Positions 9,353 to 48,398 of a DNA stretch of 64,000 bases are shown here, piece after piece. The DNA comes from an uncultured virus (IMG/VR IMGVR_UViG_3300032093_000023) (taxonomy: Duplodnaviria; Heunggongvirae; Uroviricota; Caudoviricetes). How positions within the stretch are numbered: the first letter of the stretch is position 1; the number at the start of each line of letters is the position of its first letter. The notes under the pieces were generated by a model. That model was not told the origin of the DNA. It saw only the letters and a program-made list of their open reading frames with translations, and ran no database searches. Both the position numbers and the translations under genes were made by a program. The stretch is from the IMG/VR virus record IMGVR_UViG_3300032093_000023. One strand, written 5' to 3'.

Positions 9353-10804
9353 CTAGCTAATGCTAGAAGCATCTAAAATTAATTGAGCCGCATCTGAAGG
9401 ATCTCTTAACATGATACCACATTCAGTCATTGCTTCAAATGTGTAACCATCTACTGAACTTGCAGATGAACCATTCTTCTTAGGTCCATAAGGTCCATAC
9501 ATACCTTCGATGTAAGTTGTTACCATCTCACGATCTTTAGAGTATACTTTTTGAATATTTGGTTCTCCTTTGTTATAAGACTTAAAGTTTAAGAAAGTTG
9601 CTTTGTAAGACTCAGCTGGTTTACCAGTTTGAGGGTGTAACAAACGATTTCTTACAACATCATTATAAGGCTTGTATTCTTTTAAAGTAATCTTATCACC
9701 ATTTAAACCTGTGTAAGTCATGAACTGGCCATGTAACTCTAAGTTTTGTCCTTCACCTGCAATGAATTTACTATCAACTAAGTTGAAAGCAGATGCACTA
9801 CGTTTCATAGCTTGATCAAATAAGTTCATGAACTCACGACCACATAATGCTACATACTCACGAGGACCATCTTCAGTACCATTGTATGCTAAATCTCCCA
9901 TGAAATCACGGATAGTTTTCTCATTCAAAGTAGTGTATAAACGTTTGTTACCTGGAGCAATTTGAGATTCTAATCCAGCACCAGAATAAATAGTATTTCC
10001 TGAAGCACCTTTTAAATCTGTAGTACCGTTAGATTTAACGTTAGATTCACCAAACATTAAACTAATTTCAATCTCATCCATGAACTGTTTCCAGAATTCC
10101 CACTCAGCATATTTTACCCAAGTGTTAGTTTTTTCATTAGTTTCAGGATTTAACATTGAGATAACCATAACACGGCTGTGAGCAGCACCAGTTACAGAAT
10201 ATTTTTTACGCAATGTAGACATAAAGTTTTCTAACATCATTGGTGTAGCATAGTGAGTTTCACCAGATGTACGAGAATGATCATGCTCTACTAAGTTGTA
10301 TTCTTTAGATACCTCTTTACCAACTACTAATAACGCTCCTGGGATTGCTTTAGTAATATCAGCAGTAACTAATTGACACACTAAGATGTAATCAGCTCCG
10401 TCATAAATTGGTTCAGAAATTACACGAGCTTTATAATCTGGACTGTCAAATAATAAAACGTCACCTTCTGAGAACCATTTTTCACCTACACCAATTTTAA
10501 AAGTTGTAGCATTGATACCTACTGAAGCAGCAGCATCAAATACTGAACGTGTAATTGAAATAGCTTTACGAGAATCTCCAATGATATTCCAACGATATTG
10601 GATACCATCAATCTCTTTAGATTTACCCATACCACCTGTTAAGAATGATAGAGCATTTTTATAACCGTTTTGTTTGTTATAAATACGAGTGATAACTTGA
10701 CTAGCAATAGCTGGCTCAGTTAAAAAGAAACTAGACAAATGTGAATCTTGAGTAAGACCCGCATGCCAGTTCATGTTTGTTATTTGTAATGGACTAATTT
10801 GCAT
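9353..10804 (-). CDS. Major capsid protein (crAss-like, HK97 fold)
   Basis: 483 aa; order terminase-portal-scaffold-MCP; motifs LRKKYSVTG, SGAGLESQI, HPQTGKPAESY, SSVDGY...CGIMLRDP. Confidence 0.88.
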   Translation of the reverse strand: MQISPLQITNMNWHAGLTQDSHLSSFFLTEPAIASQVITRIYNKQNGYKNALSFLTGGMGKSKEIDGIQYRWNIIGDSRKAISITRSVFDAAASVGINATTFKIGVGEKWFSEGDVLLFDSPDYKARVISEPIYDGADYILVCQLVTADITKAIPGALLVVGKEVSKEYNLVEHDHSRTSGETHYATPMMLENFMSTLRKKYSVTGAAHSRVMVISMLNPETNEKTNTWVKYAEWEFWKQFMDEIEISLMFGESNVKSNGTTDLKGASGNTIYSGAGLESQIAPGNKRLYTTLNEKTIRDFMGDLAYNGTEDGPREYVALCGREFMNLFDQAMKRSASAFNLVDSKFIAGEGQNLELHGQFMTYTGLNGDKITLKEYKPYNDVVRNRLLHPQTGKPAESYKATFLNFKSYNKGEPNIQKVYSKDREMVTTYIEGMYGPYGPKKNGSSASSVDGYTFEAMTECGIMLRDPSDAAQLILDASSIS

Positions 10805-12063: not shown

Positions 12064-12588
12064 TTATCCTTTTAATTCTGTATCAAATAATCTCATTGCT
12101 ATCTTATCTTCACCAAAAGCTTCTAATTTATCTATATAAGTTTGAACTTTTCCTAGTTCTTCTTGTTGTTCAGTTAAGAATTTCATAGCTAATTGATATA
12201 ATAAATGATTACCATATTTCATAGCATGTGAAGCTAATTCATTACATTGTTGAGTAACCATTATTTCATGAGCAAATGATTGTCTAATAATATCAGGTAA
12301 TCCAGCAAATACTTGAGGAGGTTCTTTTAAAGCCGGTAACTTTGGAGTTACTCCCATATCTAAAAGAAAATCTTTAGCCCATTGAGCATGTTTCATCTCA
12401 TCTTCAGAATCCTTTAACCAGGCTGAAGCTGCTCCAGTATATCCATGATCATTTAACCATAAAGACATTATTTGATATAGCCGACTAGAATATTCTTCTT
12501 GCTCAATTCTATAATTTAATATATCAATGCATTCTTTAGATGCAAAAGGGTTTTTAACCCCACCAAGTTTTACTTTAGGTACTTCCAT
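12064..12588 (-). CDS. Ferritin-like di-iron protein
   Basis: Ferroxidase pattern E..Y / EDEMKHA / HE..VT / EQQEE over a 174 aa four-helix bundle. Confidence 0.85.
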   Translation of the reverse strand: MEVPKVKLGGVKNPFASKECIDILNYRIEQEEYSSRLYQIMSLWLNDHGYTGAASAWLKDSEDEMKHAQWAKDFLLDMGVTPKLPALKEPPQVFAGLPDIIRQSFAHEIMVTQQCNELASHAMKYGNHLLYQLAMKFLTEQQEELGKVQTYIDKLEAFGEDKIAMRLFDTELKG

Positions 12589-25608: not shown

Positions 25609-26410
25609 TTATATTGAGTTTATGTGATAGTTTCCTCAATACAGTTTAAGTATTCTGTAAAAATACTCCTTGTAGGTTAGTTGGTCAAACCTTACTTTAA
25701 AATATTGTAACATTAGTTACTAAAGATGATAGTTAGGTGGTGTATTTGGTAGTTCTTATACAACATACTATACGTGAGGTGGTTTAATATCTTTCCACCA
25801 GTTAGTCCAAAACTAAAAGATAATATTATATAACTTGTTGAAACAAAGTCTTACTAACTTTAAAGTAAATAAGTTATATTTTATTTAAAACATTAAAACA
25901 ATAAATTATGAAAAATATAATAAAGCTTAAAGAAGTAATGTCATTTAATGAATGTCAATATTTACTTAAAATGAATCCTTGGCAATATGATAATAAAATA
26001 CTTTACAAAAGAAGAAAGAGACTTAAAAATAAGTATTTTTATTTAATAATTGAAAGAGGTCATAATCATTGTACAAAAAATTAATCAGAGTAACTTTTGT
26101 GATACTGATTAATAATAAACTCTTATCCAATTGTAGAATAAATAGTTCAACTGAATTTAGAACACCTATCTTAAGTAGGAGGTATAGCCAAGGTACAACC
26201 TTGTAAGAGTTTATTTAAAACAAATTAAAATATAATATCCCTAATAAATATTCTAACAAAACTTAGTGGTTGTCCATTAACTTGGTAGTTGTATATAATT
26301 ATTAGTCGTTTTCTCATTATATACACAAATATGAAACCACCAAACAAGTGAGAGGCTTGTTCTTTTTAAATAATTCAATCAAAATATAAATCAACTAAAA
26401 CCTAGAAATC

Positions 26411-26887
26411 ATGAAAGAATCAGTGAAAATCAAATTGCTATTTATAAGCTTAATGCTTATTGTAATGTCTGCATGTGCATTTGCACAACAATCAGGTTTT
26501 GATACTAACATATCTAAAACTAGATCTCAATTAAAACAATTAGAAAAAACTAAAATCAAATTAGATTTATCTGTATTTGTAGATGATCAATCAATTGATG
26601 ATACATCATATGTATTAAATATTGTAAACTACAACAATGGTGTATTAACATCAATGCATGTATCTAACAAATTTGTATTATTTTTAGATTACTCTACTGA
26701 ATATGAAATATCAATAAATTATAAAAATACTAACACTAAAGTAATAATTGTTAATACTGAAGCTACCTACAATAATTGGTATATTGTAACATCTGTTGCA
26801 TTAACTTCAGGTGTAAATGATAGGATTTTAGCAGGTGGAATTAAATTTGATTATGAATTAAACACATTTAAAAAATATAAAAACTAA
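26411..26887 (+). CDS. Exported protein with signal peptide
   Basis: Basic N-terminus, hydrophobic core, AFA|Q cleavage site typical of Bacteroidota. Confidence 0.6.
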   Translation: MKESVKIKLLFISLMLIVMSACAFAQQSGFDTNISKTRSQLKQLEKTKIKLDLSVFVDDQSIDDTSYVLNIVNYNNGVLTSMHVSNKFVLFLDYSTEYEISINYKNTNTKVIIVNTEATYNNWYIVTSVALTSGVNDRILAGGIKFDYELNTFKKYKN

Positions 26888-26932
26888 TTAACGAGTCAGA
26901 TTAATTTCTGACTCACTTTAAAATAAAATACT

Positions 26933-27346
26933 ATGAATAAAATATTTAAAATTAAATTATTGACAATATTATTCTCAATAATTTTAACCAACACATTTAG
27001 TCAATCAATAACAACTGAAATAGCACAATATTGTGATTATGATACAACATTAGATTTATGGAAAGATTGTACAATGGATTATAATCATACTTCATTATTT
27101 GTAATCAATGAACAAGAAACAATGATTACACATATAACAATAGATAATAAATCAACATATTATATTACTGATAAAACAGTAGAGTTTAATGAAAAAAAAG
27201 AGAAAGTATGGATGTATACAGTAAATAGTGATTTAGGTAAACAATATATTGTTAAAATAAACCCTATTGCTAGAACTATATTATGTGTATATTCTGTAGA
27301 TAATGAAATTAAAGGAACTACTTTTACAATTAAATCAATATTTTAA
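26933..27346 (+). CDS. Exported protein with signal peptide
   Basis: Hydrophobic core then TFS|Q cleavage site. Confidence 0.6.
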   Translation: MNKIFKIKLLTILFSIILTNTFSQSITTEIAQYCDYDTTLDLWKDCTMDYNHTSLFVINEQETMITHITIDNKSTYYITDKTVEFNEKKEKVWMYTVNSDLGKQYIVKINPIARTILCVYSVDNEIKGTTFTIKSIF

Positions 27347-27597
27347 TATTGGTAATTTTGAGATTGGAGTTAAATGAGCAATTAATTACTTATAACGATT
27401 GAGTATAAATGAAGTAAACGTGAACAAAGAAGCCTATAGAAGTTGAGCCATTAATCAACCATGTGGAGGTGTAATAAACCACAGAAAAAACACCACGTTT
27501 ATTTCTTTTATACTTTGTTATAAAATTGTTTTAATGTTTTAACGTTCTCCAGCTTGTTGCAGTTGCAGATAATTAATTACTTAATAAAACAAAAATT

Positions 27598-27858
27598 ATG
27601 GATATTACAGAAAGAATACATAACGCAATAGAGTGGGCAAATAAACGCCTAACATTACAAGGTCAAGAACTTTCACAAGAACAAAAAAACTATTTAACTT
27701 TTGCCTTATCACAGAATTTTACTAACAATTACCAAGCCTTGCAATTGCAACAAACCGATGTTATAAAATCGGAGTGTGAACACGATTGGAAATGTATATC
27801 ATATATTTCACCATCAGGTGTTTGGACTTGCACTAAATGTAAGAAAACGGTAGGGTGA
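27598..27858 (+). CDS. Cassette-array ORF spanning hairpin 2, Cys-rich C-terminus
   Basis: Starts in the hairpin loop; LQLQQTDV is the translated right arm; CEHDW..C..WTCTKC tail. Confidence 0.6.
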   Translation: MDITERIHNAIEWANKRLTLQGQELSQEQKNYLTFALSQNFTNNYQALQLQQTDVIKSECEHDWKCISYISPSGVWTCTKCKKTVG

Positions 27859-27876
27859 CTGTAAAAACATAAAATT

Positions 27877-28143
27877 ATGATAACATTAACTTATAAAAAA
27901 GAAGTGACAAAAAAGAAAACTATAAAACGAATTGTAGTTGATTTTATTAATAACTATAAATACAAATGGATTCACCAAAATTTTACTGCCAATTGGAGCA
28001 ACTTAAAATTATATCCGAGGTTTTGGTTAAACAAAAGTATCGACACTCCAAACTTTAATCATTGGAGTTTTACAATTCGTTTTTTATGGTGGTATTTTGG
28101 AATACAAAAGAAATTTATTAATGAGCAGAATTTAGACGATTAA
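27877..28143 (+). CDS. Cassette-array hypothetical protein
   Basis: ORF ends just before hairpin 3. Confidence 0.55.
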   Translation: MITLTYKKEVTKKKTIKRIVVDFINNYKYKWIHQNFTANWSNLKLYPRFWLNKSIDTPNFNHWSFTIRFLWWYFGIQKKFINEQNLDD

Positions 28144-28146
28144 CTA

Positions 28147-28675
28147 GTGCGGTGGGGTGCAATTACCGCTAACGGAATCAAGCTATGCGCTGTTAGCGCG
28201 GATTGTGCGTTGAAAATAGCGCATAGGTTGTGTTAGCGGTTAGTTGCACAGCGAAGGAATAGAAACAATTTAAACAATATACAAATGGAAAAATTAAGAG
28301 TAAACAGATTTAATGATAGAGTAGCAGAAATAATATACTTCATCATCGAGCCAAGATTAAATTTAGTGTACGGAATTGTTGGCGAAACAGAAACCAAGCT
28401 AAAATACTATGATGTGTGCATAGCCCCTTTTTGGAGTGATTTTCAAAACACAACAGTTTATGAAATGGCAGTTAATCCAACAGGAGAACGCTATGAAACT
28501 GGTGAGCCTGCCACTATCAAAAAGGAATTATTAACGGAGGGTATTTTCGCCAACAAACTTGATATTACTAAAAGCAGAGATGAAGTATATTATTTGCTTA
28601 CAGGTAAAAGAAAGAAAGCTATTTACACGAATGTTATCGGGTAACCCGTGCGGTAGGGTGCAATTACCGCTAACG
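28147..28675 (+). repeat. 28 bp direct repeat (28147-28174 and 28648-28675, one mismatch)
   Basis: gtgcggtggggtgcaattaccgctaacg versus gtgcggtagggtgcaattaccgctaacg; partial third copy cggtagggtg at 27847-27856. Confidence 0.9.
28285..28644 (+). CDS. Cassette-borne hypothetical protein
   Basis: Single ORF between hairpins 3 and 4. Confidence 0.65.
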   Translation: MEKLRVNRFNDRVAEIIYFIIEPRLNLVYGIVGETETKLKYYDVCIAPFWSDFQNTTVYEMAVNPTGERYETGEPATIKKELLTEGIFANKLDITKSRDEVYYLLTGKRKKAIYTNVIG

Positions 28676-28758
28676 TTTTGCGTATAAGAGCCGTTTTTTC
28701 AATGGATTTTATACGCTGTTATAGGTAGGTTGTAACGAATGTTTAATTAGTACAAAAT

Positions 28759-28890
28759 ATGAAAAATAAGATTATGAAAATTATTAGAATTGAAAACAAT
28801 AAAAAGAAGTGGAAAGTAAAAAGATTGAAAGAAGGATTACTTTTCTATGAACGAATAGAAAAAAAGTTTGTTATGTTAAAATGTTTCTAA
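28759..28890 (+). CDS. Cassette-borne 43 aa basic peptide (not in ORF track)
   Basis: MKNKIMKIIRIENNKKKWKVKRLKEGLLFYERIEKKFVMLKCF between hairpins 4 and 5. Confidence 0.45.
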   Translation: MKNKIMKIIRIENNKKKWKVKRLKEGLLFYERIEKKFVMLKCF

Positions 28891-28982
28891 ATGATACGCA
28901 ACTTACCTATAACGGCAGCGAATTGGCGACAGGCCGTAAATAAAACACAGCATATTGGCATTAACGCTCGGCTTGCGCCAAT

Positions 28983-29291
28983 TTGTTGTTACCACTTCGT
29001 TTTGCAAGCGTGGGCAAAATAAAAATTAAAAAGATGATTGAAAACATTAAAGAACATTTATCAGATTACAAATGGATTTACATTATTACCATTGTATTAT
29101 TATCACTAATTGGATGGTGGATTTGGTATGAATATGCTTATCCGTGTGTTTATGGACACTATGAAGAACAATGGCAACAAACATATATTTATGCAGCAGA
29201 TGGTAGTATGACACCAATGGGAGGTTATTGGCAAGATGTATTCATTTGTGATTGTAGAACAGTACGCGATAGCGTGTCGGATGCAAAATGA
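28983..29291 (+). CDS. Cassette-borne single-pass membrane protein (probable start at the internal MIENIK)
   Basis: TM segment WIYIITIVLLSLIGWWIW; lies between hairpins 5 and 6. Confidence 0.6.
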   Translation: MLLPLRFASVGKIKIKKMIENIKEHLSDYKWIYIITIVLLSLIGWWIWYEYAYPCVYGHYEEQWQQTYIYAADGSMTPMGGYWQDVFICDCRTVRDSVSDAK

Positions 29292-29359
29292 GTGGTAACG
29301 TGCCGCAGCCTTATTTAGTGCGGGCTTAAAAGCACTATGTTAATTTAAAACCGAATATT

Positions 29360-29527
29360 ATGAATAGTGAAAATGTGTCCAACGAAGCCGAAAACCCCGC
29401 ATTGAATAAGGGTGATGTTAGTGGCAGTCAATTCTGTCCTAATTGCGGTAAAGAACACGATAGCGATGAATGGAATGGATATTGTTCAAAAATATGTTGG
29501 TGGGGATTTCCTGTTGATTGCCACTAA
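29360..29527 (+). CDS. 55 aa ORF spanning hairpin 6, zinc-finger-like C-terminus (not in ORF track)
   Basis: MNSENVSNEAENPALNKGDVSGSQFCPNCGKEHDSDEWNGYCSKICWWGFPVDCH; its stop is the TAA of the next TAAC core. Confidence 0.6.
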   Translation: MNSENVSNEAENPALNKGDVSGSQFCPNCGKEHDSDEWNGYCSKICWWGFPVDCH

Positions 29528-29561
29528 CGTTTTGCAGCTAATAAATCTTAAATAAACAACT

Positions 29562-29879
29562 ATGAAACAAATTATTATAATAATTATAACATTATTAACA
29601 TTAAATTCTTGTGATACACCAGGAACTACAACAATGAGATTAACAGGCACTGAAGCAAATTTACCTGAAGAATTAAAAGGATTAAAAATATATAATATTG
29701 CTACAGGTAGTGGTAATTATGTTAAAGTAGCAATACTAGATAATAAAGTTAATTCTACAACTTATAAAATTGGTAAACATGCGAAATCAACAATTATATT
29801 AAATACTAAAATAGAACAAGCGTATAAAGTTAGACGTTTAATATCTGAATCAGATAGTATACTTGTATTTTTAAAATAA
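29562..29879 (+). CDS. Putative lipoprotein
   Basis: Hydrophobic leader and lipobox LNSC. Confidence 0.65.
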   Translation: MKQIIIIIITLLTLNSCDTPGTTTMRLTGTEANLPEELKGLKIYNIATGSGNYVKVAILDNKVNSTTYKIGKHAKSTIILNTKIEQAYKVRRLISESDSILVFLK

Positions 29880-30170
29880 TCAATAAACAAACAATAAATA
29901 TGAAAAGTAAATTTAAACAATTAGAATGCTTAATTGCATGGGCACAATTTTATTCAAATCATAAAAACTTAGCTATGCCTACTAATCGAGATGAGATAAA
30001 ATTTAACAAATTACAAAAAGAAATTGAAAAACTTAAAACACAATTAATAGATTAATTATGGCAATTATTATTGAAAAGATAGACATTGATAGAACAGTGT
30101 TTAAGAAAACTTCTGAAGAAAAGAAGAAACTTAAAGAATTAAAAAGACTTTATAAACTAAGAATTAAGTA

Positions 30171-30359
30171 ATGACACTAGAACGACATATTGAACTAATA
30201 ACTACAAAGAATATTACATTACTTAACCCAACAATGGAAGAAATGATTTATTGGAGTCAAAGCAATATATTTGTATTTATTAATCTCAAATGTATTGTTA
30301 AAAGTGATAAAATAGATCAAAAGTATAAATTAAGTAAATACAACATTAAATTTAAGTAA
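30171..30359 (+). CDS. Hypothetical protein
   Basis: ORF track. Confidence 0.4.
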   Translation: MTLERHIELITTKNITLLNPTMEEMIYWSQSNIFVFINLKCIVKSDKIDQKYKLSKYNIKFK

Positions 30360-30494
30360 CTCTAAAGGTTACAACATACACTAGGTGCATCATTACAAAT
30401 ATGAAAAGAGCTTGTATATAGATTTGATAGTTTATAATAGTGAATCTAATAGTAATAATTAAATAGATACTAGTAATAGTGAAGCTAATTAAAA

Positions 30495-30752
30495 TTGCAA
30501 GATTTAATGTGTTGCTTAAAACTCGCAGCTATTATAAATAAAAACCATAAATTTAATAATATGAAAGAAATATTACAAGAAATATTCTATAGGTATATGA
30601 TGATTATGTGCGCTTTACATTTATTTTCATTTGGTATAATAATAATGCCTTTTGTAACATATAGCGAAGGACATCCTTATTACGCAATACTTTGTGCAAT
30701 AATTATATACCCATCAAGTTTTATATTATTAGAAATATTTAAAAAAGAATAA
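30495..30752 (+). CDS. Two-TM membrane protein (probable start at the internal MKEILQ)
   Basis: Two hydrophobic helices. Confidence 0.5.
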   Translation: MQDLMCCLKLAAIINKNHKFNNMKEILQEIFYRYMMIMCALHLFSFGIIIMPFVTYSEGHPYYAILCAIIIYPSSFILLEIFKKE

Positions 30753-30753
30753 T

Positions 30754-31065
30754 ATGTCAGTAAAATGTTTATGTATAAACAATAAATTAAGACCTAAAGA
30801 AATACTTCCTCAAAATTGGATTAATGAAGGTACAGAATATACAATAAACTATGTATATTACCATGTTAATCAAGGAATACAAGGAGTTACTTTAGATGAA
30901 GTACAAACTAAATCAGAAATATATTCAAGTTATAGATTAGATAGATTTGCCTTCACTAAAGAAGGTATTGAACAACTAATTGAATTAATGCAAGATTGTA
31001 CTGAATTAGGTAAATTAGATATTCAAGAATTAATTGAAGAAAATAATTTAGAATTAATTGAATAA
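30754..31065 (+). CDS. Hypothetical protein
   Basis: KCLCIN...P...WINEGTEYT...RF pattern. Confidence 0.6.
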   Translation: MSVKCLCINNKLRPKEILPQNWINEGTEYTINYVYYHVNQGIQGVTLDEVQTKSEIYSSYRLDRFAFTKEGIEQLIELMQDCTELGKLDIQELIEENNLELIE

Positions 31066-33919: not shown

Positions 33920-33985
33920 ACACTCATAGCTCAATTGGTTAGAGCACTAGATATAGCGATGCAGGTTCGAGTCCTGTTGAGTGTT
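33920..33985 (+). ncRNA. tRNA-like RNA with truncated anticodon arm
   Basis: Acceptor acactca/tgagtgt; D arm gctc-aattggtta-gagc; only cta-gata-tag in place of the anticodon arm; T arm gcagg-TTCGAGT-cctgt. Confidence 0.7.
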
Positions 33986-43129: not shown

Positions 43130-43183
43130 ATAACCTTTTAAATATTCCTCTTATTTTTGTATCTTTATAATAAAAATACAGAT

Positions 43184-43921
43184 ATGAAAATAAGTGGAAT
43201 AGGGTTTATTTATATGATTACCAACCCAAAAAGAAAAATTTATATAGGGTCTACAATTGATTTTGATTATAGATTTTCTCAATATAAGAGATTACATTGT
43301 AAGGGACAAACAAAATTATATAGAAGTTTATCTAAATATGGTTATGAAAACCATGCTTTTGATGTAATTTGGGCTGGTCCTATTGAAGAGATGTATAAAT
43401 ATGAAACTATGATTGGATGGGGATTTAATGCGCTAGAAAAAGAAGAGGGGTTAAATTGTAAATTACCTAAATTTGGAGATACTTATAGTGTTTTTAGTGA
43501 TGAAATTAGACTTAAAATTAGTACATCTAATAAAGGATTTAAACATTCAAAAGAGACGAGAGAAAACATGAGTAGGGCAGGTAAAGGTCGGATTTTTACA
43601 GAAGAACATCGTAAAAATATAAGTAATGCTTTTAAAGGACGAAAATTACCTCAAAAACATATAGATATACTTATAGCTTGTCATAAAGGAAAAAAGCAAA
43701 CTCTACAACATAAAAATAATGCTACCAAAGCAAGAATGAAACCAGTATTACAATATGATTTAAATATGAATTTTATAAAAGAATGGGAAAGTATTAAAAC
43801 AGCAGCATTAGAATTAAACATCAATAGTCAAAGTATTGGTTGTTGTTGTAGAAATAAATCAAAAAAAGCCGGAAATTTTAAATGGGAATTTAAATTATTT
43901 CAAGGAGTTAAAGTATTATAA
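43184..43921 (+). CDS. Free-standing GIY-YIG homing endonuclease with NUMOD3/NUMOD1-like repeats
   Basis: FIYMITN...IYIGST, repeats HSKETRENMS/FTEEHRKNIS, KPVLQYD...FIKEWESIK; candidate -7 element TATCTTTA at 43160. Confidence 0.88.
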   Translation: MKISGIGFIYMITNPKRKIYIGSTIDFDYRFSQYKRLHCKGQTKLYRSLSKYGYENHAFDVIWAGPIEEMYKYETMIGWGFNALEKEEGLNCKLPKFGDTYSVFSDEIRLKISTSNKGFKHSKETRENMSRAGKGRIFTEEHRKNISNAFKGRKLPQKHIDILIACHKGKKQTLQHKNNATKARMKPVLQYDLNMNFIKEWESIKTAALELNINSQSIGCCCRNKSKKAGNFKWEFKLFQGVKVL

Positions 43922-45792: not shown

Positions 45793-46391
45793 TTGAACAA
45801 ATTAGTGTAGACTTAACAAAATTATATACTAATAAGCTTAAAATTGAGGATTGGTTCGTATTATTTTGTTTAGTTCACAATGAAGAAGAAATGTTAATGA
45901 AGTATATTTCTACCACAGGTAGAATAGAAACATTAATATTTCAAAGATTAAGAGATTCTGGATTTATTATCTTGAAAGATGAATCAAATATTCTATTTAA
46001 TGAGATTAAAGTAACAGACCAGGCTAAAAATTTATTTAATGTTTCAGATAATAAAGAATTTGAAATACTATTTAAAGAACTACTGTCTACTTATCCAAAA
46101 TCTGTTAAAAGAATTACTGGTGGTACTAGACCACTACATAATGATCTACAACGATGTAAAAAATTATATAAATCGACGATAGTGAGTATTGGTTTGGTTA
46201 ATAAAGAATTACATAAGAAGATATTATTATGTGTGCAAAAATATCACAGAGACCATCTTAAAGATAATAAACAAGAATTTATGCAATTATTAGCTACTTA
46301 CCTTTCTCAAAGAACTTGGGAACAATATCTTGATGAAGTTACTAATCTTGAAGTATTACCTAAACCAAACACAGACTATGACGCAATTTAA
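45789..46391 (+). CDS. Putative replication initiator/helicase loader
   Basis: wHTH-like N-terminus; FKELLSTYP and YLSQRTWEQY motifs; directly precedes DnaB. Confidence 0.55.
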   Translation: MIEQISVDLTKLYTNKLKIEDWFVLFCLVHNEEEMLMKYISTTGRIETLIFQRLRDSGFIILKDESNILFNEIKVTDQAKNLFNVSDNKEFEILFKELLSTYPKSVKRITGGTRPLHNDLQRCKKLYKSTIVSIGLVNKELHKKILLCVQKYHRDHLKDNKQEFMQLLATYLSQRTWEQYLDEVTNLEVLPKPNTDYDAI

Positions 46392-48398
46392 ACAGAGGAT
46401 AGAACAGGGTTTATCAGGTGAATATACAGGATTAGCTAATGGATTTGACAGAATTAATAAGTATATTTATAATATACAAAGAGGTTGCTACACTTTAATC
46501 GGTGGTTTAAGTGGATCTAGTAAGACGACACTTTGTGATTTTATATTACTAAATGGTTTACAAGATGCTCAGGCAAAAGGTATCCCATTTAATGTAACTT
46601 ATTACTCTTGGGAGATTGATGAAGTAAGTAAAAAAGCCAATTGGTTATCTGTACTAATCTATAATAAGTATGACAGAGTTATCTCTCCTCAGACTATTAA
46701 GGGATTAGGTGATTCTAGGTTAACTGAAGAAGAACAAGAAATAGTTTATGATACATTACCTGAATTAGAAGAACTATTTTCAAAGATTACTTGGCATTGG
46801 ACACCGGTTAATCCTACTGGATTGTACTCTGAGTGGTGGAAAACAATGTCAGATAAAGGTAAGTTTACAACTATACCTTATATTGATGATGATGGTAATC
46901 CTAAAGACAGAATAACAGGTTGGACAGCTTATAATAAAGAAGAATATAATATTGTAGTATTAGATCACTTAGCTTTAGGTAAGATAGAAAGAGGGTTTAC
47001 ACTTAAACAGAATATTGATAAAATATCTGAATACATTGTAGGATGTAGAAATATGTTTAATATGACATTCTATATTGTGGCCCAATTTAATCAAGGGTTT
47101 CATAAAAAAATCACAAATTAATTTGTGTATGTTAAAGTTATTTCGTATATTTAAATATGACAGGAATATACAAAATAACAAATTTAGTAACAAACAAAGT
47201 TTATATTGGTAGTGCAATAAATATAGATAGTAGAATTAAAGCACATATTAGTAAATTAAAAGGTAACTTACACATTAACAAACACTTACAATCTTCATAT
47301 AATAAGTATGGAGAGAATAATTTCAAGTTTGAATTAATAAGAGAAGTTTCTAATAATATACTGAGAAGAGCTGAACAATTTTATATTAATAAATACCAAT
47401 CAATAAATCCAAAATACGGATATAATAAGGCCACTGTTGTCTCAAATACTTGGGACGATATAGAAAAACCTATTATATTAAAAGATAAAATCTATTTTGG
47501 ATGTTATAATAAACAAGGTAAGTTAGTAAAAGTTTTTAAAACAATAGACGAGGTAAAAACTTTTTTAAATGTTAAAAAGTGTACAAGGGTTTATGAGTCT
47601 TGTAATAGTAATTTAACAAAAACAGCATATAATTATTATTGGATAAGATTAGATATGGCAATATTTAAATTTCAAAATAAATTAAATGTTTTTAAAAGAA
47701 AAGGTAGGCATCGTGAATTATTGCAATATGATTTAGAAGGTAACTTTATTAAAAAATGGGATTGTGCAACTGATGTTGCGGTTTTTTTTAATGTACACCC
47801 AAGTAATATTACAAAATGTTTAAAAACAAATAACATATACAGAAATAATAAGTGGTTTTACTCGGCCCCCTAGTATGGTAACATACTTTGAATAACCCAG
47901 AATATCGGTGGACATCCTGAAGAGGACAATACCGAGAGATAGATTAATTGTGAAATTAATAAGCTCGTAACGACTACCAATGGGTATCCTATAGTCTATA
48001 GGATAATGGTATAGTCTGCTCTGCAAGTATAACAAAATAAGTTGCAGTTAACATAACATGTGAGTAGTGTTGAACGATTAAAGTTTAAAGGTGCAGATAT
48101 TTCTCCACAACAAACTGATTTCAAAGACTCAACTTCTCCTTACCAAGATGCTGATATAGTAATGGGTTTAATGAATGCCTATAAAATGGATTTAGAAACC
48201 AACTTAAATTACAATATTAAAGTAGATGGATTTCCTTATAATTTAAAAGGTAAATACAGACTTCTTAAGGTAATTAAAAATAGATTAGGTCAAGACAATA
48301 TATCTATTGGTTTATATACCAAACCTGAAGCTGGTTACTTTGAAGAATTACCTAAAGAAATGACATCAGAAGATTACACAAGATACTTAAACAAATAA
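46378..48398 (+). CDS. dnaB: DnaB-like replicative helicase, spliced join(46378..47098,48061..48398), 352 aa
   Basis: GLSGSSKTT, VVLDH, AQFNQ in exon 1; QDADIV, IKNRLG in exon 2; splicing restores QFNQG-L-SSVER in frame. Confidence 0.88.
47122..47153 (+). promoter_or_regulatory. Intron-internal promoter for the homing endonuclease
   Basis: TTTG-N20-TATATTTA, 3 nt before the ATG at 47157. Confidence 0.65.
47157..47873 (+). CDS. Intron-encoded GIY-YIG homing endonuclease
   Basis: GIYKITN...VYIGSA...R...H...N..LQ; two NUMOD1-like C-terminal repeats. Confidence 0.92.
   Translation: MTGIYKITNLVTNKVYIGSAINIDSRIKAHISKLKGNLHINKHLQSSYNKYGENNFKFELIREVSNNILRRAEQFYINKYQSINPKYGYNKATVVSNTWDDIEKPIILKDKIYFGCYNKQGKLVKVFKTIDEVKTFLNVKKCTRVYESCNSNLTKTAYNYYWIRLDMAIFKFQNKLNVFKRKGRHRELLQYDLEGNFIKKWDCATDVAVFFNVHPSNITKCLKTNNIYRNNKWFYSAP

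Follow-up and report, generated by a model that had tools for sequence, protein, structure and literature searches.

Integron-type exchange is understood as the reordering of whole promoterless genes. The integrase IntI cuts the folded strand at its 5' box, between AA and C, integron attC sites are about 57-141 nt long, and cassettes of class 1 integrons can borrow an upstream start, as seen with the short open reading frame (ORF) in attI1 and the N-terminal variants of aac(6')-Ib. XerCD uses the folded single-stranded attP of the CTX phage. Clusters of attC sites without an integrase (CALINs) have been reported in virulent phages (Qi et al., 2023; PMC9892861), and the PeSL cassettes of T4-type phages are small ORFan genes in hyperplastic regions, with stem-loop motifs bordering insertions, deletions and replacements (PMC2839356; PMC4122927). 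Here, we analyzed a cassette array in a 64,000-nt stretch of the uncultured Caudoviricetes virus IMGVR_UViG_3300032093_000023 (the whole stretch is referred to as the window, and all coordinates are positions in it). In this array, the border between cassettes lies inside a reading frame: start and first residues come from the site, while certain cassettes hold only protein tails or start-less enzymes.

The first-pass annotation of the window had proposed that two ORFs (ORF A, 27598..27858, and ORF E, 29360..29527) start inside hairpin loops, translate the right arm of the hairpin and pass through the putative crossover triplet as an in-frame GAT GTT (Asp-Val). Both the loop starts and the in-frame triplets were confirmed, and the two ORFs are likely to be local examples of a general design, in which hairpins with a start in the loop precede start-less bodies, and fronts and backs are re-paired in frame. 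Small accessory genes lie in a cassette array, and between them are folded attC-like sites whose foot (TAAC-G ... T-GTTA) is invariant. Many site loops contain an ATG together with an A-rich leader; the right arm would be translated, so that anything behind GTT would be read in frame. Some cassettes are start-less coding bodies, such as two four-Cys tails here and whole DNA methyltransferases elsewhere. The comparison across phages shows repeated re-pairing of hairpin interiors (fronts) with cassette bodies (backs), at GTT or beside it, in two preserved phases (after the G of a GTT Val codon, or between xxG and TTA), which gives rise to chimeric ORFs. The sites, ORFs and units of the array are as follows.

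27392..27521, plus strand: site Z, hairpin ATAAC-G ... GTTAT; inverted repeat with 21-nt arms, 90% complementary
27517-27543: 'empty' 27-nt unit linking sites Z (right core) and A (left core)
27539..27764, plus strand: site A, 226 nt; left core TTAAC-G (27539-27544), right core GTTAT (27760-27764)
27553-27568 and 27738-27754: stems of site A; the loop contains the ATG at 27598
27598..27858, plus strand: ORF A, 86 aa, start in the loop of site A
27761..27859, plus strand: tail-A mini-cassette, encodes tail A only, no start codon
28169..28236, plus strand: site B, short hairpin CTAAC-G ... GTTAG, no ATG in the loop, duplex -18.1 kcal/mol
28175..28675, plus strand: 501-nt unit, comprising the interior of site B, ORF 28285..28644 and a left-arm repeat
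28670..28722, plus strand: site C, short hairpin CTAAC-G ... GTTAT
28909..28992, plus strand: site D, short hairpin ATAAC-G ... GTTAC, -20.1 kcal/mol
29295..29421, plus strand: site E, GTAAC-G (29295-29300) ... GTTAG (29417-29421); the loop contains the ATG at 29360
29360..29527, plus strand: ORF E, 55 aa, start in the loop of site E
29418..29528, plus strand: tail-E mini-cassette, encodes tail E only, no start codon; bounded by a 10-bp inverted repeat (GTTAGTGGCA / TGCCACTAAC)
29524..29547, plus strand: site F, left arm only (CTAAC-GTTTTGCAGC...), no right arm in this genome

All seven sites (Z, A, B, C, D, E and the truncated F) have a common foot, with ..TAAC-G as its left and T-GTTA.. as its right half, and the inverse core pair of attC type (RYYYAAC ... 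GTTRRRY). Sites B-E are 53-127 nt long, the common class measures approximately 128 nt with cores, and site A measures 226 nt. ORF A consists of an N-part (residues 1-54), V55 (GTT at 27760-27762) and a 31-residue tail, codons 54-55 being the in-frame GAT GTT (27757-27762). ORF E consists of a 19-residue leader, V20 (GTT at 29417-29419) and a 35-residue tail, with GAT GTT at codons 19-20 (29414-29419). Both tails had been described as short Cys-rich, zinc-binding-like modules; four Cys were indeed present in each (C-x5-C-x12-C-x2-C after GTT in ORF A, C-x2-C-x12-C-x3-C in ORF E), whereas the Pfam zinc-ribbon matches of ORF E were weak (E 0.002-0.007, below cut-off). No in-frame ATG, GTG, TTG or CTG was found after GTT in either ORF. 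At the DNA level, both tails are start-less units of 100-110 nt running from GTTA.. to ..TAAC. The tail-A mini-cassette ends at a mutated left core (GGTAGGGTGAC, 27849-27859), and its version in locus L015 ends at an intact TTAAC containing the stop. The stop codon of ORF E (TAA, 29525-29527) falls within the next left core CTAAC, and the tail-E unit was also found behind another front in a 130-kb contig (L150).

The comparison called for by the first-pass annotation revealed that N-terminal halves carry many unrelated C-termini and vice versa, with similarity breaking at the Asp-Val of GTT. First, front A (residues 1-54) was 65-99% identical in 12 of 14 protein-search matches, and the 14 carriers of this front (these 12, one further match and L016) had at least 11 unrelated tails after 'DV'. 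Most of these partner tails were rich in CxxC and three were not; one of the proteins had 163 aa. In L016-L018, the front-A ORF stops six codons past GTT, and distant relatives of front A (L019, L020) have a 43-aa stand-alone form that ends before the right arm. A search of viral contigs with the front-A alignment found no contigs beyond those already collected. Second, tail A was observed behind three different fronts (ORF A plus P0013 and P0014) and tail E behind at least ten, and two front families (..NEKLLLSDV and ..TPKL(D/G)ISDV) were common to both tails. Third, a near-identical front E preceded at least eight bodies, five of them unrelated (69-91 aa, protein search) and three in DNA loci (L024, L025 and L136). 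Thus, with fronts and backs occurring in many other pairings across phages, the cassette boundary lies inside the protein. AlphaFold2 (AF2) modeling predicted two helices in front A (3-20 and 27-40; pLDDT 77-86 for residues 1-40) and low confidence for its linker, which is encoded by the right arm (pLDDT <50 for residues 46-58). In these models, front A looks like a folded helical domain and is the only domain-like N-part. Most other N-parts are probably disordered leaders of approximately 20 residues (pLDDT <50) rather than domains. Most fronts would therefore be portable start or leader modules, and front A a real domain.

The generality of loop starts was analyzed in 98 unique sites from other phage contigs, with interiors of 105-130 nt (the ~118-nt class). 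Many counts in this study rest on related, non-independent sequences and on a custom site finder, and many phage loci (L026-L105) were gathered with a single left-arm motif, which favours one subfamily. At 65 of the 98 sites, a loop ATG opened an ORF running at least 30 codons past GTT, compared with a mean of 10.2 expected from shuffled loops (sd 2.9, maximum 19 in 200 rounds) and with five on the antisense strand. Short interiors were seldom read through (6/85). A random frame at GTT would have contradicted the proposed fusions; instead, GTT was a codon in 49 read-through sites and part of xxG TTA in 16, and the third frame, which reads a TAG stop at GTTAG, was never used. In addition, the frame open in the right arm matched the frame open in the cassette (38:2 vs 3:5, Fisher p 6e-4, for sequences that are not independent), and a loop indel between relatives was 3 nt long. 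Among 68 read-through ORFs with at least 40 codons past GTT, 17 had no later in-frame ATG and 38 had an ATG further in. DNA methyltransferases accounted for 10 of the 40 scanned read-through ORFs; the C5-methyltransferase profile begins at residue 30-31, about six codons past GTT, with no ATG between, and the same methyltransferase bodies were found behind different fronts.

It seems highly improbable that these frames are an annotation artefact, that is, chance open frames through hairpins whose Cys-rich tails are unexpressed or started elsewhere. Such an origin would be in line with the shortness of the ORFs, the AT-rich genome, the low AF2 confidence of ORF E (mean pLDDT 54) and zinc-ribbon matches below cut-off. 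On the other hand, the excess of read-through (65 sites vs about 10), the agreement between arm phase and cassette phase and the lack of an alternative start codon in either tail all argue against it. Tail E was also conserved across 12 protein clusters with 19 invariant columns, all four Cys included, and both Cys-codon changes between the window and L150 were synonymous. The fused ORFs would be expected to be translated.

The dependence on an outside start resembles that of class 1 cassettes, in that the frame reaches the 5' boundary, the start lies outside the cassette and N-termini depend on context. The difference is that start-borrowing in class 1 integrons is anecdotal and involves attI or a neighbouring gene, whereas here the start lies in the site loop, at most sites of a large family and in two conserved phases. 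As a concept, exon shuffling is also similar, because its junctions have fixed codon phases; here they correspond to phase 1 (after the G of GTT) and phase 0 (between xxG and TTA) in intron-phase terms. Since the junctions fall in fixed codon phases, modules can be re-paired in frame. Unlike exon shuffling, the phage event takes place at the DNA level and involves no splicing.

Support for the hairpins came from family covariation rather than from single folds. The 14-bp long-range stem of site A was present in both minimum free energy and centroid folds, and the fold of site E had a z of -2.14 against shuffles (7/200 as good). Taken together with the z of site A (given below), this means that single-sequence thermodynamic support is weak. 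A scan of viral contigs with a 15-nt left-arm motif showed a matching right arm in 58 of 79 evaluated loci. Exact 15-mer matches as such (at least 121 in viral contigs and at least 122 in genomes) were not used, as by rough reckoning chance could yield that many; only the hairpin-bearing subset was retained, namely these 58 viral loci and 48 of 80 genome loci. A structure alignment of 72 sites (114-122-nt class, preselected by duplex energy) contained 23 consensus pairs, 17 of which showed compensatory changes, so that structure is conserved over sequence, as in attC sites. In this preselected set, 93.9% of cells were paired, compared with 67.8% in shuffles (0/500) and 37-48% with slid partners, and the covariation score was 0.615 vs 0.156 in shuffles (0/500). 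The TAACG / TGTTA foot was invariant in all 72 sites, an observation that is independent of the finder, which demanded AACG and GTT[AG], only for the flanking T, A and T. Above the foot, the consensus has an internal loop (4 nt vs 0 nt) and three pairs, then a G.G mismatch in many sites and a long variable stem, and the two ends of the interior hold conserved blocks of 15 and 11 nt.

Two wobble positions were fixed as G.T on the sense strand (columns 8-136 in 72/72 sites and 27-121 in 67/72), and a manual count from the pair table gave ~209 G.T vs ~17 A.C cells; therefore, the coding strand is the better-folding strand in phages. Judging from sequence, this sets the phage sites apart from integron attC: their folding strand is the coding strand, their loops carry starts and their right arm would be translated. 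Preferential folding of the sense strand, as well as the conserved blocks at the ends of the interior, would also be expected if the hairpins were RNA-level elements, serving mRNA processing, stability or translational control, with homologous or template-switch exchange between conserved arms and no dedicated enzyme, as proposed for PeSL. We regard this explanation as unlikely. PeSL cassettes are similar in that stem-loop motifs flank small ORFan genes; these motifs are promoter-terminator motifs between complete genes, whereas the sites here combine invariant AAC/GTT cores with long stems that covary, and coding runs on through the hairpins. Between 27300 and 29700, neither sigma-70-like promoters (13 vs 12.1 +/- 3.5 expected, in a scan that excludes Bacteroidota promoters) nor intrinsic terminators (3 vs 1.4 +/- 1.1 expected) were in excess. 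An Rfam scan of the window matched only a tRNA (33920-33985) and nothing at the hairpins.

Each ORF is also flanked by its own inverted ends, formed by the outer arms that face each other across it (the right arm of the preceding site and the left arm of the following one). Their complementarity averaged 6.95 of 10 positions (mode 9), compared with 3.46 for the arms across one hairpin and 3.37 for random pairs. Such cassette-specific ends would have no role in homology-driven exchange, and thus speak against the RNA-level explanation. In the window, for example, ORF 28759..28890 is enclosed by such a pairing between the outer arms of sites C (right arm) and D (left arm), over 18 nt (89%). In all arrays, inverted ends were almost never complementary at 10 of 10 positions; in examples checked by eye, one position (AGT in the right arm vs ATT in the left) was a G.T on the same strand as the inner-stem wobbles.

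Analysis of neighbours was informative about which cassette a hairpin belongs to. In a comparison of 127 site pairs, each drawn from different loci and with an interior identity of at least 85%, 114 pairs had neither flank in common, nine shared both, four shared only the downstream flank and none only the upstream flank. The first-pass annotation had assumed that the hairpin of one cassette gives the start and N-terminus and the next cassette the C-terminus; in-frame chimeras do occur, but by these sequence comparisons the hairpin is not a property of the upstream cassette. A cassette of ~125 aa (MLIYKC...) was conserved exactly from GTTAGCGG.. to ..CCGCTAAC in four contexts, with four different upstream interiors and with downstream interiors that differ or are absent. 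Stretches of similarity between contigs begin at CTAAC and stop at GTTA; of 472 alignment ends, 109 coincided exactly with these positions. Taken together, flank sharing, alignment ends and the MLIYKC contexts indicate that both cores behave as junctions, which is a further difference from integron attC. Two simpler schemes were rejected: a crossover at the right core only, with the upstream cassette owning the interior, because of the downstream interiors of the MLIYKC cassette and the absence of upstream-only pairs, and a left-core crossover as the sole process, because of the four upstream interiors of the same cassette and the 114 unlinked pairs.

The interior of site A was found behind three different left neighbours (window, L015 and L016). 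The sequence GTTATAAAAT is present at the right cores of both sites Z and A, as if the interior of site A and its small gene had been inserted as one unit. The interior of site C recurs in L005 with other neighbours on both sides, and the interior type of site E occurs in L024 and L025 with different neighbours on both sides. Site F is complete in L001, where two more cassettes follow it, and contig matches end loosely at 29549. The 501-nt unit (28175-28675) is lacking from L001, as it is from contigs of runs X11 and X14, both made in other studies; its borders lie in a 34-nt repeat ending at CTAAC, and the indel begins directly after CTAAC.

The position of this indel would also suit a different and less likely explanation, that cassettes are merely flipped and each hairpin belongs to the gene that it starts. 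The cut would be made at the left core (between AA and C of the folding strand, as by IntI), and ordinary exchange would therefore move start and body together; shared fronts would reflect related or homogenised sites, or rare side events. The arrays of L004 and L007, which end with CTAAC followed by backbone, and the finding that one-flank linkage was always downstream (4 vs 0) point in the same direction. It is more difficult to reconcile with the 114 of 127 similar interiors that share neither flank, with the MLIYKC cassette behind four upstream interiors and with a near-identical front E ahead of at least five unrelated bodies. No within-array homogenisation was seen, arrays holding dissimilar interiors, and the cleavage position is taken by analogy.

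Relatives of the array linked the sites to a tyrosine recombinase. Exactly one such gene was present in four of five jumbo contigs, and in all four the co-oriented hairpin array ends 0.4-0.8 kb before the recombinase gene, which has the same direction; beyond it, nothing was found except one weak 25-nt match on the other strand. Jumbo contigs L156-L159 (G010, G007, G009 and G006) have arrays of 4 to 14 or more sites. In G009, the last cassette before the recombinase carries a methyltransferase ORF that begins inside the hairpin and reads GTT ATG where the two parts join. The array-linked recombinases are Xer-like and lack the IntI insert: they matched TIGR02249 in two stretches that skip profile positions ~180-239, with scores of 151-158 bits vs a cut-off of 265. 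Thus, an IntI-type recombinase with the additional domain was not found at the arrays. In contrast to integrons, the associated enzyme, where present, is Xer-like and its gene lies at the distal array end, in the same direction as the genes. XerCD on CTX attP provides a precedent for a Xer-type tyrosine recombinase acting on a folded single-strand hairpin; it differs in concerning a single integration site of a filamentous phage, with no array and no coding through the site. This enzyme link distinguishes the sites from PeSL motifs and also argues against purely RNA-level elements.

A recombinase also adjoined arrays in four of five bacterial isolates. The 118-nt hairpin was present in the 48 genome loci mentioned above, 44 of them from Bacteroidota-named records. 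In Pedobacter glucosidilyticus (L282), Arundinibacter roseus (L283) and two Flavobacterium (L284 and L285), the recombinase heads an ORF-site-ORF-site array, in which cassette ORFs of 130-700 aa are each followed by a hairpin of ~118 nt, and the Xer-like recombinase (345-558 aa) has the same direction; the bacterial enzyme is 37% identical to the phage one over 259 aa. At 16 of 17 sites in four Bacteroidota chromosomes, the folding strand was opposite to the genes, and sites lay 3' of cassette ORFs, which is the attC arrangement (folding bottom strand, site 3' of the ORF). In phages, by contrast, sites have the polarity of the genes, and each overlaps the ORF that follows at its 5' end. Therefore, the phage arrays represent the same system with flipped sites. 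This geometry also favours the explanation by which hairpins belong to the genes they start, and a non-coding folding strand in bacteria is at odds with RNA-level elements. Only six of 58 hairpin sites from the genome collection were read through, none convincingly, and loop starts are a feature of the flipped (phage) form only. The chromosomal arrays constitute an integron-like platform in Bacteroidota, one that would escape finders based on IntI. A small antisense ORF across the bacterial hairpins was open for at least 60 codons in only nine of 38 copies; therefore, it is probably not a gene and was dropped as such. In L195, L196, L214 and other bacterial copies, the antisense strand is open from a Met just outside the hairpin to the TAG of CGTTAG (49-57 aa, ...LRNRHLRVAAKR).

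Bacterial homology and the analogy with IntI would place the catalysed cut of the phage sites at the left core, which would keep start and gene together; re-pairing at GTT may thus be a second kind of event. In that case, it would depend on the other strand or on homology-driven exchange within the conserved blocks of the arms. We tentatively propose, as a possibility somewhat short of even chances, that Bacteroidota phages run a flipped integron-like system, in which sites double as initiation or N-terminal modules in two fixed phases and exchange re-pairs proteins in frame. The exchange would be driven by an integron-like reaction of the Xer-like recombinase, which for this phage would be supplied in trans.

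Several observations weigh against this proposal or the wider design. First, no recombinase was encoded in the 64-kb window, where none of 107 ORFs of at least 50 aa matched PF00589 (profile scan, E <= 0.01), or in any of five smaller related records, four of which have a completeness of at least 94%. In addition, when close relatives were compared (window vs L015 and L001), some breakpoints lay 14-20 nt inside the left arm rather than at a core. Both points also favour RNA-level elements with homologous exchange. Second, the 248-nt stretch of site A folded no better than shuffles (z +0.22; 115/200 as good). Third, 33 of the 98 sites were not read through, and 13 of the 68 read-through ORFs had their own ATG right at the border (GTT ATG), so that the loop start is not always needed. 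Fourth, database proteins are gene-caller predictions that choose the longest ORF, and the only RNA-library match was a 161-nt contig (X20) identical to 28352-28512, for which DNA carry-over is possible; it lies in ORF 28285..28644, the cassette missing from relatives. Finally, P12002L_attC1, a site upstream of a methyltransferase gene in Polaribacter phage P12002L that belongs to this hairpin family, was predicted by HattCI only and was the only one of six phage sites without a verified IntI1 recombinant in the CALIN report (PMC9892861).

CALIN phages otherwise resemble the present array in their small-cassette arrays, imperfect hairpins, RYYYAAC / GTTRRRY-type cores and complementary cassette ends, and in frequent DNA methyltransferase cargo and the absence of an integrase from the phage (PMC9892861). 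With seven sites in 27392-29547 and no tyrosine recombinase in 64 kb, the array itself would be a CALIN, only if its sites count as attC. A literature search, with subscription journals outside its coverage, revealed no paper on loop-encoded starts, these arrays or the enzyme link.

If the proposed flipped system is real, it would be the prokaryotic equivalent, at the level of DNA, of exon shuffling between compatible phases, and its cargo would be anti-defence genes, such as those for methyltransferases and small zinc-ribbon proteins. Provided that the fused ORFs are translated, phages could express any captured body at once, fronts like A would allow the building of new two-part proteins, and gene callers and cassette definitions for such phages would need revision to include start-less cassettes and site-encoded N-termini. 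A Xer-like enzyme without the IntI insert in both Bacteroidota and phages also makes it testable what minimal recombinase uses folded single-strand sites.

The window is part of a crAss-like phage genome, with a Crassvirus major capsid protein (PF23898, E 8e-123, 9356-10804, minus strand) and a tail ring protein; GC content was 23-35% in 1-kb windows across the phage DNA. The cassette array is located in a region of small ORFs between divergent structural and replication modules, and blastn of 26000-31000 against deposited phages found no DNA relative. At 46330-48398, two ORFs match the DnaB_C helicase domain (profile 1-62 and 184-239) with a GIY-YIG/NUMOD1 homing-endonuclease ORF (47157-47873) between them, an arrangement that resembles a helicase gene interrupted by a mobile intron or by an endonuclease of the free-standing type. 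A further GIY-YIG ORF was found at 43157-43921. The structural module contains a ferritin-like protein adjoining the capsid genes (12067-12588, minus strand; PF00210, E 5e-22), and a 90-aa ORF at 44213-44482 matches the Tad2-like Thoeris anti-defence domain (PF11195, E 4e-23).

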